This document shows positions 4,868 through 64,000 of a stretch of 64,000 nt of DNA, piece by piece. The DNA lies in assembly GCA_028534125.1 (NCBI GenBank), contig CM052816.1:5148001-5212000 (forward strand). Direction: 5' to 3'. A model generated the notes under the pieces. It ran no database searches. It had not been told where the DNA came from and saw nothing but the letters and a program-made list of their open reading frames with translations. The stretch's first letter is position 1, and the number at the start of each line of letters is the position of its first letter. The stretch is from Lama glama (lineage: Eukaryota). A program made the position numbers and the translations under genes.

Positions 4868-5211
4868 TATACTATGAAGCCACGGTAATCAAGAACAGTT
4901 GTGGTAATGGCAGAAAGATAGTCATAGAAACCCATGGAAAAGAAAAGAGGTCCCAGAAACAAACGCTCACATATATGGGATTAACTGATTTTCCAAGGGT
5001 GTCAAGACCATTCAATGGGAAAAGGACAGTCTTTTCAACACATGGTGCTGGGAGACTGGAGCGCCACATGCCACAGAATGAAGTTGCACCCTTACCTCAC
5101 ACCACATACAAAAATCAACTCCAAATGGATCAAAGACCTAATCTTAAGAGCTAAAACTACAAAACTCCTGGGAGAATATACAGGGGGAAATTTTCGTGGC
5201 AATTCTTTCTT

Positions 5212-5350: not shown

Positions 5351-5744
5351 CGTGGCAATTATTTCTTAAATACAACACTAAAAGCACAGATTATGCACAC
5401 ACACAAAAAAGGTAAGTTGGAATTTATCAAAATTAAAAACTTTCATACATCAAAGTACACTATCAAGAGAGTGAAAAGAAAACCCACCAGGTGGAAGAAA
5501 TATTTGCACATCCTATATCTGATAAGGGATTAATATCTGGAATATGTAAAGGATTTCTACACAACAACAACAAAAAATCAAATAGCCCAATTAAGAAATA
5601 GGCAAAGGACTTGAAAGACGTTTCTCCAAAGATGATGTACAAATGGCTAATAAGCATATGGAAACATGCTCAACATCATTAGTCATCAGGGAAATGCAAA
5701 TCAAAATCACAATGAGATATGACACCCACTAGAATGGCTGTTTT

Positions 5745-27507: not shown

Positions 27508-27521
27508 AAGAACAAAGCCAA

Positions 27522-27558
27522 TACTGAAATAAAGCTAGAAAAATATTCAGAAAAAAAA
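27522..27558 (+). other. 29-nt retrotransposed 3' end plus poly(A)
   Basis: Perfect 14-bp TSD AAGAACAAAGCCAA (27508-27521, 27559-27572); AATAAA 27528-27533 lies 17 nt before the A tract. Confidence 0.7.
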
Positions 27559-27584
27559 AAGAACAAAGCCAAGATACCCCGCTT

Positions 27585-28058
27585 TGTAACCGAGCAGGAC
27601 CCTATGGGGCCTTCCAGGGACAGACCCCTCCCTCATATCCTCTGCTTTAGCTTCTCTCTGAAGCGCCCAGATAACAGTATCTGATGCACATTTCCTGAAT
27701 TGTTTTACAGATGCTCAAGCCACCACCAAATGGAAGAAATCAACTACTTGACAACCGTAAGCACATAGCCCCATATCTACTAGTGCTTAGGATTGAAAAT
27801 ATTAACCCCTGTGACACCACCTTGTTACCCAACCATCGACCAACCAATCAGAGAATTGGGCTCGAGCTAATCACATACCATGGGATTCCACTCCCTCACC
27901 TGGCCTTTAAAAATGCTTTCCTGAAACCCATCTGGGAGTTCAGATGTTCTGAGCACCTGGACTCATTGCGTGGTGCCCTGCAACAAACACTGCACTTTCC
28001 TTCACCACCACCCGGTGTTAGTAGATTGGCGAGCGGACCTAACTTTGGTTTGGTAACA
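27585..28058 (+). mobile_element. ERV1-class solo LTR inserted in L1 ORF2
   Basis: TGTAAC..GGTAACA termini; imperfect TSD ctt / cttt; CCAAT 27844-27848; TTTAAAAA 27906-27913; L1 sequence rejoins across it. Confidence 0.85.
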
Positions 28059-28395
28059 CTTTCACCATTTCTATTCAACATTAAATTACTTTAGCTATTG
28101 CACTAAGAAAAGAAAAATTAATAAAGGCATACCTCTTGGAAAAGAAGTAAAACTTTTTTCACAGATGATATGATTATGTGTGGGAAAAACATAAGAAATC
28201 TACAACAGAAACTATTAAACTCAAAACACAAGGTCAATATTAAATAAATGTTCACTGCGTATTAGCACAATTAAAAAATTAAGTAAACAAGAGCCATTTA
28301 TAATAGCTATAAAGCCCATAAAATCCTTATAAATGAATGTATCAAAAGATATGTAAGACTTCTATACTAAAAGTTACAAAACAGTGATAAAAGAA

Positions 28396-28541
28396 GTCTT
28401 TGTTATTTTTTGGGGTGGGGGGAGGTAATTAGGTTTATTTATTCATTTGTTTCTTTTTTTTTTTTTTTAATGGAAGTACTGGGGATTGAACCCAGGACCT
28501 TGTGCTAAGCATGCACTCTACCACTGAGCTATACCCTCCCC
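28396..28541 (-). mobile_element. tRNA-Ala-derived SINE (vic-1-like)
   Basis: Reverse-strand head and body; TSD acaaaa(c/t)agtgataaaagaa. Confidence 0.93.
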
Positions 28542-29124
28542 GACAAAATAGTGATAAAAGAAACCAAAAAAAAAAAAAAAAAAAAACCTAAAAAAAGGTA
28601 GAGCTATATACCATGTTCATAGATTGGAGAACTCAGTACTGTTGAGGTTATTAATTCTTTCCAAACTCATGTATAGATTCAACATAATCTCAATCAAAGT
28701 TACAGCAGGATTTTTTGTCGCACAAATTAAGTCTAAAATTTATATGGAAATGTAAACAACCTTGAATATTTAAATCAATCTTGAAAAAGAAGAGTAAAGT
28801 TCAAGGACTTATCCTACTTGATTTCAAGACTTACTATAAAGCCACAATAATCAACACAATGTGGTAATGGCCTGAGAATAGATATGCAGATCAATGAAAA
28901 CAGAACAGTACTCAGAAATATATATATGGCCAACTGATTTCCAACAAAAGTTCCAAAGTAATTCAATGGGGGAAGAAAAGACTTTTCAACAGATTGTGCT
29001 GGAACAACTAGCTATCTGTGAGGGAAGCAAATGAATCTCAATCCTTCCCTCATACTCTACCCCAAAATCAATTCCAGATGAATCGAAGAACTACTTGCAA
29101 AAGCTAAAATTATAAAGCCTCTAG

Positions 29125-29334
29125 GGATTTGCAAATGTTAGCCACTATATATATAAAAATAGATAAAAACCCCAAATATTTTCTGTATGGCACAGGGAAC
29201 TATATTCAATATCTTGTAATAACCTTTAATGAAAAAGAATATGAAACAAATATATGTATGCATATGCATGACTGGGACATTGTGCTGTGCACCAGAAACT
29301 GACACATTGTAACTGACTGTACTTCAAAAAAAAA
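29125..29334 (+). mobile_element. L1 3'-end stub (camelid type)
   Basis: tgtatggcacagggaactatattcaatatc..gactgtacttcaaaaaaaa. Confidence 0.9.
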
Positions 29335-29359
29335 CTCTTGGAGAGATCTCAATAGGCAA

Positions 29360-31829
29360 GATGTGTAAGAGACTAAGAAGACAAGCCACAGACTAGGGGA
29401 AAATATTTGCAAAAGGGATATCTGGTAAGGAACTATTCTCCACTCTGTTTCTCCAGCCCTAAGAAGAATGGCTAGGATATATTAAAACGTTTCTTGCGGC
29501 TCAGAGCATAATCCAGCAGTGGTTGACGTGGAAACCAAGTCACAGAGAAATTGAGACTTAAAGATCACACACCTCATGTGTAGTGGAGCCAGACTGTGGA
29601 CCCTGTGTGACTTCAGAGCTGATGACCAGATGACCCGTTCATCAAACCATGCTGGGGGTGATTTCTCAATTACCACTCTATCTTTGCCCCCATTTATTTG
29701 ATACTTCAGAGAAAACAGTACAGAGATGGCTTTCTCCAACCAGACTTATCTGAACCAGACAACCTACTCCTTCCAGGGCAGGAAAGGATACCCAGGACAC
29801 AGACCTCTTCCCCACAGAGGAGAAAGTACATTCCTGCATACTGCTGCCCTGTCATGGAGCCCAGGAGTTGCCAAGAACAAACCAACCAGCTGATTCCTCT
29901 GGGCCTGGAGTGTCTCAAAATCTTCTGTCCTGCTTGCTCTGCCACATATTAACTACAGATCTGGGGCAGATTGCAGGGCCCTCAATGGCAATGCCAAAAG
30001 TGGACGTGAAGCTGAGGCAGAGTTTTCAAACAAGTAGATACAGGTAACGTTCCATGAACTGGAAAAGAAGGGGACCCCGTGGAGGTGGCTGATGGGCAGC
30101 CGCTCAGCGAGCTCACAGAAGACCTACAGAAGCACTTGCCCCCCTACGCCCCAGAGCCTCTCAAGACCTCTGGCCTTTGCCTGTCTCCTACACTGAGCCA
30201 AGGGAAAGAATCTGAAGCTGGGAGGAGGAAAGATCCTTCTGATGTTCTAGTGGGGCAAGGGGATTGAGTTCGCTACAGCAGTGGGAGGTTCATGACTTTT
30301 TCAGTGACCAGAACGTCTCCACTCCAGGTGGAGGAAGTTGCTGTGGGTATGCAAGGCTTTAGCAAACTATTAAAGTGCCTGTTTGTGCCTTTTTCCTTGT
30401 CTCCATCACAGTCTAGGAACCAGTACCTTGAAGCCCTGTCCTTGATTAATTAGTAATGTTTTCTGTCCTATAGTGATCTCCTAGGATGGAGGTGGTCAGA
30501 GGGAAGAGAGGGTCAGAGTACTGCTCTTGATTATGAAAACCTACCTATATCCATTTTGTGTATCCATGTACAGTTTAAGTCGTCTAAATTGCTCTGTTAA
30601 TTTCCACACTGTACTTTTGTAGAAAATAATTTTCTAGGAGGCACATAACGTTTTCCTTAAAGAACTACCTAATTCATGTACATAAAATATATCATATGTG
30701 CACTTACAGGTGTATATGTCATACTTAAAAATACATCATTCTGAAGTTTTGAGGAAAAGAATGACTATTATCCAAAATGTGCAAAGAACTCTTAAAACTC
30801 AACAATAAGGAAGTGAACAACCTGATCAAAGAATGGGCCACAGACCGGAACAGACACTTCACTAAAGAAGACATACAGATGGCAAATAAGCAAATGAAAA
30901 AATGCTCACCATCACATGTCAGTAGGGAATTGGACACTAAAGTAACAATGAGATACCACTCCACATCTGTTAGAACAGCCAAATTCTGAAACACTGACAA
31001 CATCAAATGCTGGCAAGGTTGTGAAGCCACAGGAAATCTCATGCATTGCTGGTGGGAATGCAAAATGGTACAACCACTTTGGAAGACAGTTTGGCAGTTT
31101 CCTATAAAACTAAACACGCTCTTAGCATATGACCCAACAATTGTTCTCCTTGGTATTTACTCAAGCAAGCCAAAAACTTATGTCCTCACACAAACCTGCA
31201 CATGGGTGTTTATAGCAGCTTTATCCATAACGGCCAAAACTTGGAAGCAGATAAAACGTCCTTCAGTAGGCGAATGGATAAATAAACGGTGGTACACCCA
31301 GACAATGGAATTAGTGCTGAAAAGAAATGAGCTATCAAGCCATGAAAAGACATGGAAGAAACCTAAATGCATATTACTCAGTGAAAGAAGCAAGTCTGGA
31401 AAGGCTACATACTGTGTGACTCCAACTGCATGACATTCTAGAAAAGGCAAAACTATGGAAACTGTAAAAAGCTCAGTGATTGTCAGGGGCTGGGGGAAGG
31501 AGGGATGAATACGCAGAGTACAGAGGATTTTTAGGGTGGTGAAACTATTCTGTATGAAACTACAGTGGTGAGTGTACGTCATTGTACATTTGTCTAAATC
31601 AATAGAATATACAACCATCAGAGTAAAAGCCCTAATGTAAACTAGGTGATGGTCATTCATGTGTCACTGCAGGTGCACCAATGGTAACAAATGTACTTTT
31701 CTGGTAGGAGAGGTTGACAGTGGGGAGGCGGTGCCTGTGTGAGGGGCCGGGGTACAGGGGAACTCTCTGTACTTTTCTGCTCAACTTTGCTGTGAGCCTA
31801 AAACTGCTCTTTAAAAATAGTCTACTAAA
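29360..31829 (+). mobile_element. L1MC (L1MC1-like) 3' part split by a 1.3-kb insert
   Basis: agacaagccacagactagggg..atctggtaaggaactatt rejoins gactattatccaaaat at about 30762; peptide HCWWECKMVQPLWKTVWQF; 3' end gctgtgagcctaaaactgctc. Confidence 0.85.
29442..30759 (+). pseudogene. Putative 5'-truncated retrocopy of an mRNA/lncRNA 3' end (parent not identified)
   Basis: Unique sequence between imperfect TSDs; six TGTA, a TGTACATA and AATACA precede a short A-rich tail. Confidence 0.6.
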
Positions 31830-33344
31830 AATCAATAAATTAGACTTCCTCAAAAATATAAAATTCTGCTCATCAAAAGACACCATTAATAAATGAAAAG
31901 ATGAGCCACAGATGGGAGAAAATATTTTCAATATATAAATCTGACAAAGGACTTGCATCCAGAGCATATATATAGAACACCTACAACTCAACAATAAAAA
32001 GACCATCCAATTTAAAACAGACAGGGCAAAAAACTTGAACAGACACTGCAAAAGAGATATACAAACGGCCAAGAAGCACGTGAAAAAGTGTTCAACATCA
32101 TTAGACATAAGGGAAAAGTAAATTAAAGCTAACACGAGATACTACCTACTAGAATGGCTAGAGTTAAAAACAGACAATATCAAGTGTTGGTGAGGATGTG
32201 CAGTTCTCTTAAGTTTTCTGGTTAGAGTGTAAAATGGCAAAACCACTTTGGAAAACTTTGGTAGTTTCTCTTGAAGGTAAAATACACCCACTCTATGACC
32301 TAGCAGTTCTATTTCTAGGAATGAAATATGTATATATTTGTATGTAAATACAAACTTATAAATTCATATGTATTTCTACGTATACACATAGGTACATAAA
32401 TACATATATACATACATACAAAAGACTCATACATGAATGTTTTTAGTAGTTTTATTTATAATAGCCAAAAGCTGGAAACATCTCTCATGTCTATGACTAG
32501 GTGAATGGATAGACCATTTCTTAACAATGTTATACTATTCAGCAATAAAAAAGAACACATTATTGATACATGCACTGACATAAACAAATCTAAAAAACAT
32601 TGAGTGAGAGAAGCCAGCCATAAAAGTACATGTGTGATTCTATTTATATGAAGTTCTGAAATAGGAGACGTTAACCTCTGGTGAGGAACATTAAAACAGT
32701 ATCTGCCTTTTGCGGGGACTGGTGGCCAGTGGCCAGAGGGGACTTTCTAGGGTGATGAAATGTTTTATACCTTTATTGTGATCCTGTTACATGAGGGCAC
32801 ACTCTTGTTCAGACTCACTCAACTATGCATTTGAACTCTGAGCATTTTTTGTGTGTACATTATAATGCAATGAAACTTAAGTAAAGCTAAAAAGCACTCA
32901 ACATAAGGAAAAAGGATCTAAATACTCCAGAATTAAAGATTTTAAAATGGAGAATAATATAGATGTGCTAAAGAGAGGACAGATTGGAGGAAGATAATTT
33001 GCGCTGTCAAAACCTAGCAAGTAGAAAAAGGAACGCTTGACAATTGACAAGAAAGTGGCCCTTCATAGAAAATTGGCCCAGGGTATGAGTTAGCAATTTA
33101 CAGTTCTTAGTCATTAGCAATTCATCTATATTATCTGGCCATTCTATCCCTTGCTATAGACCCTAATGAAGTTTTCACACAGGTCCATAAAAGACATGTT
33201 CCACTATGTTCAAGTTAGCATTGTTCATGGGGCAGAGTTGAAGGCAATCTGGGGTCCATCAGTTTGATGGTGAGTTATATTAACTTTACCTTCTGGACCT
33301 AAAGTCTCACAAATATGCATGTGCACACACACACACACACACAC

Positions 33345-63202: not shown

Positions 63203-64000
63203 CAGACCAAAGAGGTGAAAGACTTATATGCTGATAACTATAAAACATTGATATAGGAAACTGAAGATGATTCAAAGAGATGGAAAGATATCCCATGCTC
63301 TTGGATGGGAAGAATTAATATTGTTAAAATGGCCATCCCACACTCAAAGCAATCTATAGATTTAATATGATCCCTATCAAATTACCCAAGATATTTTTCA
63401 CAGAACTAGAACAAATAATCCTAAAATGTATATGGAATCACAAAAGACCCAGAATTGTCAAAGCAATACTGAAGAAAAAGCATGAAGCTAGAGAAATAAC
63501 TCTCCCAGACTTCAGACAATACTACAGAGCTATAGTATTCAAAACAGCATGGTATTGACATAAAAACAGACATATGGATCAATGGAAAAGAAGAGAAAGC
63601 CTAGAAATAAACCCATACACCTGTGGTCAATTAATCTTCAACAAAGGAGTCAAGAATACACAATGGAGAAAAGACAGTCTCTTCTGCAAGTCATGTTGGG
63701 AAAGCTGGACAGTTCATGTGAATCAATGAAATTAGAACGCTTCATCACACCATACACAAAAATAAACTCAAAATGGCTTAAGGCTTAATTATAAGACATG
63801 GCACCATAAAGCTAGGAGAAAGCAGAGGTAAAACATTCTCTGGCATAAAGTGTAACAAAGTATTTTTTAGATCAGTCTCCTAAGGCAAAAGAAATAAAAG
63901 CAAAAATAAACAAATGGGACCTAATCAAATTAAAAGCTTTTGCACTGCAAAGGAAACTATGAACAAAATGAAAGGACAGCCTACGAATTTGGAGAAAATA
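63203..64000 (+). mobile_element. L1 ORF2 fragment, runs off the window end
   Basis: Peptides [47 protein letters not shown] and TPYTKINSKWLK; disrupted by stops and frameshifts. Confidence 0.95.

Follow-up and report, generated by a model that had tools for sequence, protein, structure and literature searches.

A 1.3-kb host sequence within an interrupted L1, probably a 5'-truncated retrocopy of a transcript 3' end

The 64,000-nt stretch of DNA analyzed here (the window) contains a nested block of repeats in which one L1 element is split in two. The insert between the two L1 pieces occupies 29442-30759 (1318 nt, 46% GC). An earlier note on this DNA had placed AAGGAACTATTCTCC at 29427-41 and AATGACTATTATCC at 30760-73, on either side of an insert of this length, with ATTAAA at 30369, TGTACATA at 30677, and AATACA at 30730 inside it; all of the quoted strings were found at these coordinates, and the length was confirmed. 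The features of the locus are as follows.

28592..29125, + strand, upstream segment (ORF2) of the older L1; aligned with L1 copies of the window at 63274-63775 and 4870-5172
29126..29335, + strand, younger multi-copy repeat with an A tail, inside the older L1; 75-87% identity to five other window copies
29349..29441, + strand, left piece of the split L1, about 90 nt, with ORF2 in frame up to the break
29427..29441, + strand, left copy of a decayed target-site duplication, compared ungapped with 30759-30773
29442..29525, + strand, 5' 84 nt of the insert; unmatched in the donor-type homologue when this is anchored; candidate for the 3' portion of a preceding exon
29523..29595, + strand, MIR core remnant, starting at the MIR's TTTTACAG/AT acceptor-like site
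29526..30751, + strand, insert body; host sequence, non-coding, to which homologues exist elsewhere; candidate for a terminal exon or 3' UTR
30552..30751, + strand, AT-rich end (30% GC) with six TGTA, TGTACATA (30677), and AATACA (30730)
30752..30759, + strand, possible tail remnant AGGAAAAG, inseparable from the L1 target
30759..30773, + strand, right copy of the decayed target-site duplication
30760..31830, + strand, right piece of the split L1, ORF2 C terminus and 3' UTR
31836..32885, + strand, downstream continuation of the older L1, including a 3' end of its own; 31836-32159 aligns to 5413-5739

Two L1 copies elsewhere in the window are uninterrupted. The left L1 piece aligned to them at 5465-5537 and 31873-31953 (E value of 5e-6 each), and the right piece at 5528-5726 and 31947-32267. 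Because these alignments overlap on both intact copies, the two pieces are in register. The right piece also corresponds to residues 1049 to 1265 of L1 ORF2p (E value of 1.4e-61), and the proposal that a single L1 had been split was thereby borne out. Across 30765-31409 of the right piece, the ORF2 frame stays open for 215 codons except for a single stop, which is unusually clean for an old copy. We take the left piece to be of the L1MC type and the right piece to be L1MC1-like.

An older L1 is probably the host of the entire nested block. Its upstream segment may begin near 28070, and 29025-29123 weakly resembles ORF2p residues 945 to 977 (E value of 0.11). The 3' end of this older element scored above chance against two of the three other L1 ends in the window, and a PDB search with 31831-31920 gave no match. 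The nesting at 28592-32885 appears to consist of an older L1 that holds two younger repeats (28399-28541 and 29126-29335) together with the split L1 bearing the insert.

Self-comparison revealed no second copy of the insert in the 64-kb window. We sampled 160 words from 29340-30860 and found 0.93-0.97 of them in 18 runs under five organism labels, so that the structure is no artefact of assembly; one of these 18 word-rich runs may be the window's own source. Four other rows of the word-sampling table, all from tiny data sets, contained almost none of the words, and two rows that were RNA or guessed to be RNA had word shares of 0.08 and 0.05, which are no evidence on expression.

The earlier note had described an imperfect duplication around the insert, and a decayed repeat of about 15 nt is indeed present, in register with the intact L1 copies. 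The two copies agree at 10 of 15 positions ungapped and at 12 of 15 with one gap placed by eye; the ungapped score was reached by 141 of 127,970 15-mers of the window. CTATT is common to both copies at a position where the intact L1 copies have TTAAT and CTTGC, which fits the duplication of one target. In the intact copies the insertion site reads AT/AAGG and AC/AAAG, A-rich and off the TT/AAAA-like consensus. Target-site duplications are reported to peak at 14-16 nt for L1 insertions, and short duplications to be rare among mRNA retrocopies (PMC2912911), so the length of the repeat supports an insertion of the L1 type. Tails and duplications are described as labile (PMC5470649). Taken with the distance of about 20% to the homologues described below, the decay of the duplication suggests an age of tens of millions of years.

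Protein-level searches were made for a coding parent. In Pfam, 26 ORFs (25 from the insert region and one from the L1) and six read-through frames gave no match to the insert below an E value of 0.079, and the three + frames of the insert gave a best E value of 0.039 in PDB, which we judged to be chance. Word-index protein searches with the insert returned no match; two of them missed short homologous ORFs through length limits. Leads in the ESM Atlas (0.83 and 0.87) pointed to hypothetical and phage proteins and were rejected. Six tRNA-like matches were all that Rfam returned, none of them within the insert. For a host gene, 150 of the 230 ORFs of at least 75 aa (reaching 53.4 kb) were scanned in Pfam, with five weak matches and none at the cut-off.

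A full phmmer search of one + frame of 29662-30450 against 1.84 billion proteins identified seven proteins at E values up to 0.001 (best, 4.6e-23), all unnamed. These homologous ORFs lie on contigs of 0.9-5.7 kb in Logan or ENA, and five further members came with their clusters. The frame in which they match the insert shifts, with frameshifts between versions, and we therefore regard them as chance ORFs on homologous non-coding DNA. Codon-wise alignment took in 8 of the 12 ORFs, and all eight were collinear with the insert over 29522-29949 and 30018-30619, about 1030 of its 1318 nt; the last 140 nt (30620-30759) had no homologue coverage among the aligned ORFs. Identity at non-degenerate sites was 77-82%, a range biased upward by the way in which the ORFs were discovered. 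Five distinct ORF versions, with 48-80% mutual amino acid identity over the shared core, resemble orthologues from different mammals, although some of them may represent this very insertion as carried by other species. The homologous ORFs cross without a break the donor-like CAG/GTAACG at 30045-30053, which thus did not serve as a junction here. One locus from scans of DNA collections for homologues (L001; 62% GC, CpG-rich) had no DNA similarity to the insert and was dismissed as chance.

One cluster of these ORFs, P0002/P0008, continues beyond the 5' junction as an intact antisense MIR, without L1. Its N terminus, MCQALC, is the translation of the MIR consensus, which was built from 23 window copies. 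The first 31 codons of P0008 follow the MIR, so that MIR sequence fills the 93 nt before the break. Since the MIR is whole there and the 5' junction has no L1 beside it, P0002/P0008 looks, from its protein letters, like the donor locus or its orthologue.

The insert itself carries a MIR remnant as cargo. The earlier note had recognized a MIR-like piece in this region, and it was confirmed with a profile derived from six further copies in the window (29523-29595; nhmmer E value of 0.00089). By the usual MIR orientation, the remnant is presumably antisense to the + strand. At the MIR density of the window, a random 1.3-kb piece contains a MIR about half the time, and the remnant is therefore no pointer to a 3' UTR. 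Together, the alignments support the view that host sequence entered a single old L1 and brought the MIR with it.

With the P0008 alignment anchored at the MIR's TTTTACAG, codons 32-42 agree with the window at 17 of 18 sites, and in codons 13-31 27 of 33 fixed sites agree with the MIR consensus and 9 of 33 with the window. The change-point of this homology break falls at 29519-29528 (mode, 29524-25); a splice at the MIR AG would predict a break at 29525-26. We take the AG of TTTTACAG to be the usual MIR acceptor. In P0008 the A of this AG is the third base of an Ala codon and is assumed from MIR descent. There are 11 acceptor-like sites in 1.23 kb, four of them in the part covered by P0008, and we estimate at roughly 8% the chance that a break interval of 8-10 nt would coincide with any such site. 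That the homology stops at the MIR acceptor because an intron was removed has, on these alignments, about even odds.

The 84 nt upstream of the candidate junction (29442-29525) are open in one frame across it, with a stop at 29559; they gave no MIR profile match, have no other copy in the window, and yielded no protein relative in our searches. When 29438-29470 was compared with P0008 codons 13-23 shifted by 30 nt, 12 of 18 sites agreed, a score equalled in 19 of 300 shuffles (P = 0.06). This shifted match allows a reading with no splice and a local replacement of about 30 nt, which would require 24 nt of MIR to have been exchanged for 54 unrelated nt immediately next to the AG. A 5' inversion of the nearby MIR was also considered and rejected, as the reverse complement scored 12.2, at shuffle level.

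According to PMC2394776, MIR exonization is mostly antisense, the main MIR donor is CTA/gtaagt, and the most used SINE acceptor is an AG after a pyrimidine tract. At the position of this donor the window has CTCATG, and P0008 has Ser-Trp where the MIR consensus gives two stops; the donor has probably been lost in both. An exon opened at the MIR acceptor could then extend as a last exon. The exonized antisense MIRs that have been described (PMC2394776, PMC4615370) likewise use a pyrimidine-rich AG of the kind proposed as acceptor here, and most of those published are internal cassette exons that end at the MIR donor, whereas the donor of the insert seems lost, its exon would be terminal, and the splice is deduced from the alignment. 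We tentatively propose, at somewhat short of an even chance, that the insert is the fossil of an ancient spliced RNA, be it a lncRNA or an isoform with an alternative last exon, and that an antisense MIR acceptor gave rise to the terminal exon of this RNA. If so, the fossil would record a splice form and a poly(A) site that are tens of millions of years old and maybe no longer used. A possible junction of this kind, which the earlier note overlooked, is a better hint of RNA than the sequence motifs on which that note relied.

Those motifs lie mainly in the AT-rich end. All six of the TGTA elements that had been counted are present, and the insert holds a seventh, at 29579; similarly, the internal ATTAAA at 30369 has a counterpart at 29481 that had been missed. 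AATAAA is absent from the + strand of the insert. In 5000 dinucleotide shuffles, six TGTA in the last 200 nt had a P value of about 0.02, assessed post hoc, and TGTA over the whole insert had a P value of 0.22, so that the cluster amounts to a weak local enrichment; six were attained by 2 of 109 AT-rich 200-mers. The Pumilio site had P values of 0.07-0.09 when the last 200-250 nt were shuffled and 0.036 over the whole insert. Any of 13 poly(A) signal hexamers occurred at the observed distance in 35% of shuffles, and AATACA alone in 5%. By shuffling, then, neither the Pumilio site nor the poly(A) signal variant was clearly above chance. The proposed decayed A-rich tail came down to AGGAAAAG at 30752-30759, part of which may be L1 target, and no recognizable poly(A) tail stands at the 3' junction. 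Among human polymorphic retrocopies, a tail is reported in only 64% and 50% (bioRxiv 2020.06.07.139212), so its absence is compatible with a retrocopy. An origin of the 3' motifs from an old L1 terminus found no support: 30600-30759 compared with four L1 ends in the window gave shuffle P values of 0.21-0.73, and an L1-end profile, built from a small library, found two other ends and missed this one.

Taken as a whole, the locus is probably best read as an L1-mediated retrocopy, truncated at its 5' side, that stems from the 3' end of a host transcript. Under this proposal, L1 ORF2p acting in trans would have nicked an A-rich site within ORF2 of an old L1 copy, and target-primed reverse transcription would have copied a polyadenylated Pol II transcript of the host, from its 3' end and in + orientation. 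Reverse transcription would have halted after about 1.3 kb, leaving a 5' truncation and a target-site duplication of about 15 nt, and the tail and the duplication would have decayed afterwards. The AA(A)G start of the duplication, AATACA, and the MIR acceptor would all be in keeping with + strand insertion. An RNA intermediate is likely, and its poly(A) site would lie at about 30751; at about even odds, this RNA would have been spliced, with a last exon beginning at the antisense MIR AG and 29442-29525 as the end of the preceding exon. The retrocopy proposed in the earlier note is thus supported as far as the host-sequence insertion and its MIR cargo are concerned and likely in its RNA origin, and the motif grounds given for it proved weak.

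Such an event would be of a known kind, of which this copy is a further example. Like 5'-truncated processed pseudogenes and mRNA retrocopies as described in PMC5470649 and PMC2912911, the insert is host sequence in a single orientation, truncated at its 5' end, between direct repeats of about 15 nt, and it may contain one exon junction; unlike them, it has no detected coding sequence and no clear tail, and it was missed by the protein-family searches that we ran. Class 1 templated sequence insertions, in the description given by PMC5110952, share with it non-L1 host sequence, a duplication of at least 5 bp, and possibly a cryptic poly(A) signal near the 3' end. Those insertions are reported there as recent polymorphisms with AATAAA and 10-40 A; in contrast, the present insert is old, is apparently common to five organism labels, and has AATACA and no intact tail.

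Other routes could bring host sequence into an L1. A 1.3-kb genomic fragment might have been copied into a staggered break, or during repair, within the L1, as in class 2 insertions and without mRNA processing. The absence of a tail and of AATAAA would suit such DNA-level capture, as would a GC and MIR content like that of ordinary local DNA and the shifted 12-of-18 match, which suggests that the MIR may reach the junction. The duplication of about 15 nt at an A-rich site is nevertheless a class 1 trait, class 2 insertions being characterized in PMC5110952 as lacking duplication; homology is lost sharply at the acceptor position, and no source lies within the 64-kb window. We consider capture of DNA doubtful. 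Read-through from a source L1, polyadenylated at AATACA and truncated before the L1 was reached, would leave an orphan 3' transduction, which in the account of PMC5470649 is likewise unique sequence with L1 hallmarks and no L1 sequence of its own. Its duplication and variant signal near the end would equal those of a retrocopy, and the lack of coding similarity fits. However, no source L1 could be shown, the P0008 locus has 93 nt of MIR rather than L1 immediately upstream of the break, and none of the window's L1 copies matches the 5' 84 nt. A source L1 farther upstream is conceivable, but this origin appears improbable.

The insert could also be a fragment of an unrecognized transposable element or of an ERV internal region, or ancestral DNA flanked by two independent L1 pieces. 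The homologous ORFs bear no species or locus labels and could represent a low-copy family. Yet just seven matches were found among 1.84 billion proteins, in one frame, and the insert occurs once in the window, gave no Pfam domain in any of six frames, and shows no terminal repeats by eye; these results speak against a transposable element or an ERV, and the overlap of the L1 pieces in register argues against their independence. We hold both versions to be highly improbable. Finally, the sequence could have been acquired during the insertion of the split L1 itself, by a template switch off the L1 RNA and back in one event. The left piece comprises only about 90 nt in a nested block, which would place the insert near a 5' truncation, and no tail would be needed. 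Two switches would be necessary, however, with a return at an overlap of about 15 nt that happens to be the usual duplication length, and one later insertion is simpler, so that a template switch seems scarcely credible.

As it stands, this copy is most likely a dead, functionless fossil, and no sign of function for the insert emerged from this sequence analysis. A single retrocopy matters little, as mammalian genomes carry many. Nested L1s can nevertheless serve as an empty-site reference for insertions too old to retain a tail, and spurious ORFs on public contigs can expose non-coding homologues where genome alignments are lacking. Should the junction hold, it would put a date on the acceptor derived from a MIR, and on the poly(A) site, that a transcript of an ancestral mammal once used; such dates are hard to obtain by other means. 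If the spliced origin is true, such fossils could be found in bulk as unique sequence within L1s split in register. Judged from titles and the openings of abstracts, we found no paper describing this locus, and a literature search combining retrocopies, camelids, and LINE-1 returned no paper.

The surroundings of the insert hold further elements. The window as a whole (1-64000) is mammalian DNA full of repeats and rich in MIRs, with 34 profile matches at E values below 0.001, and its tRNA-derived SINEs look to us like those of camelids. At 27585-28058 lies a 474-nt element that starts with TG and ends with CA, flanked by CCGCTT and CTTTCA without a clean duplication; it resembles a solo LTR, and self-comparison of the window gave no second copy of it. 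Some 1.9 kb upstream of the insert, at 27522-27558, a 37-nt piece with AATAAA at 27528 and a run of eight A lies between perfect 14-nt direct repeats (27508-27572). This piece, the sole match of its type in a simple window-wide scan, is read as a young and extremely truncated L1-type insertion of an RNA 3' end, and it forms a contrast to the weak 3' motifs of the insert.
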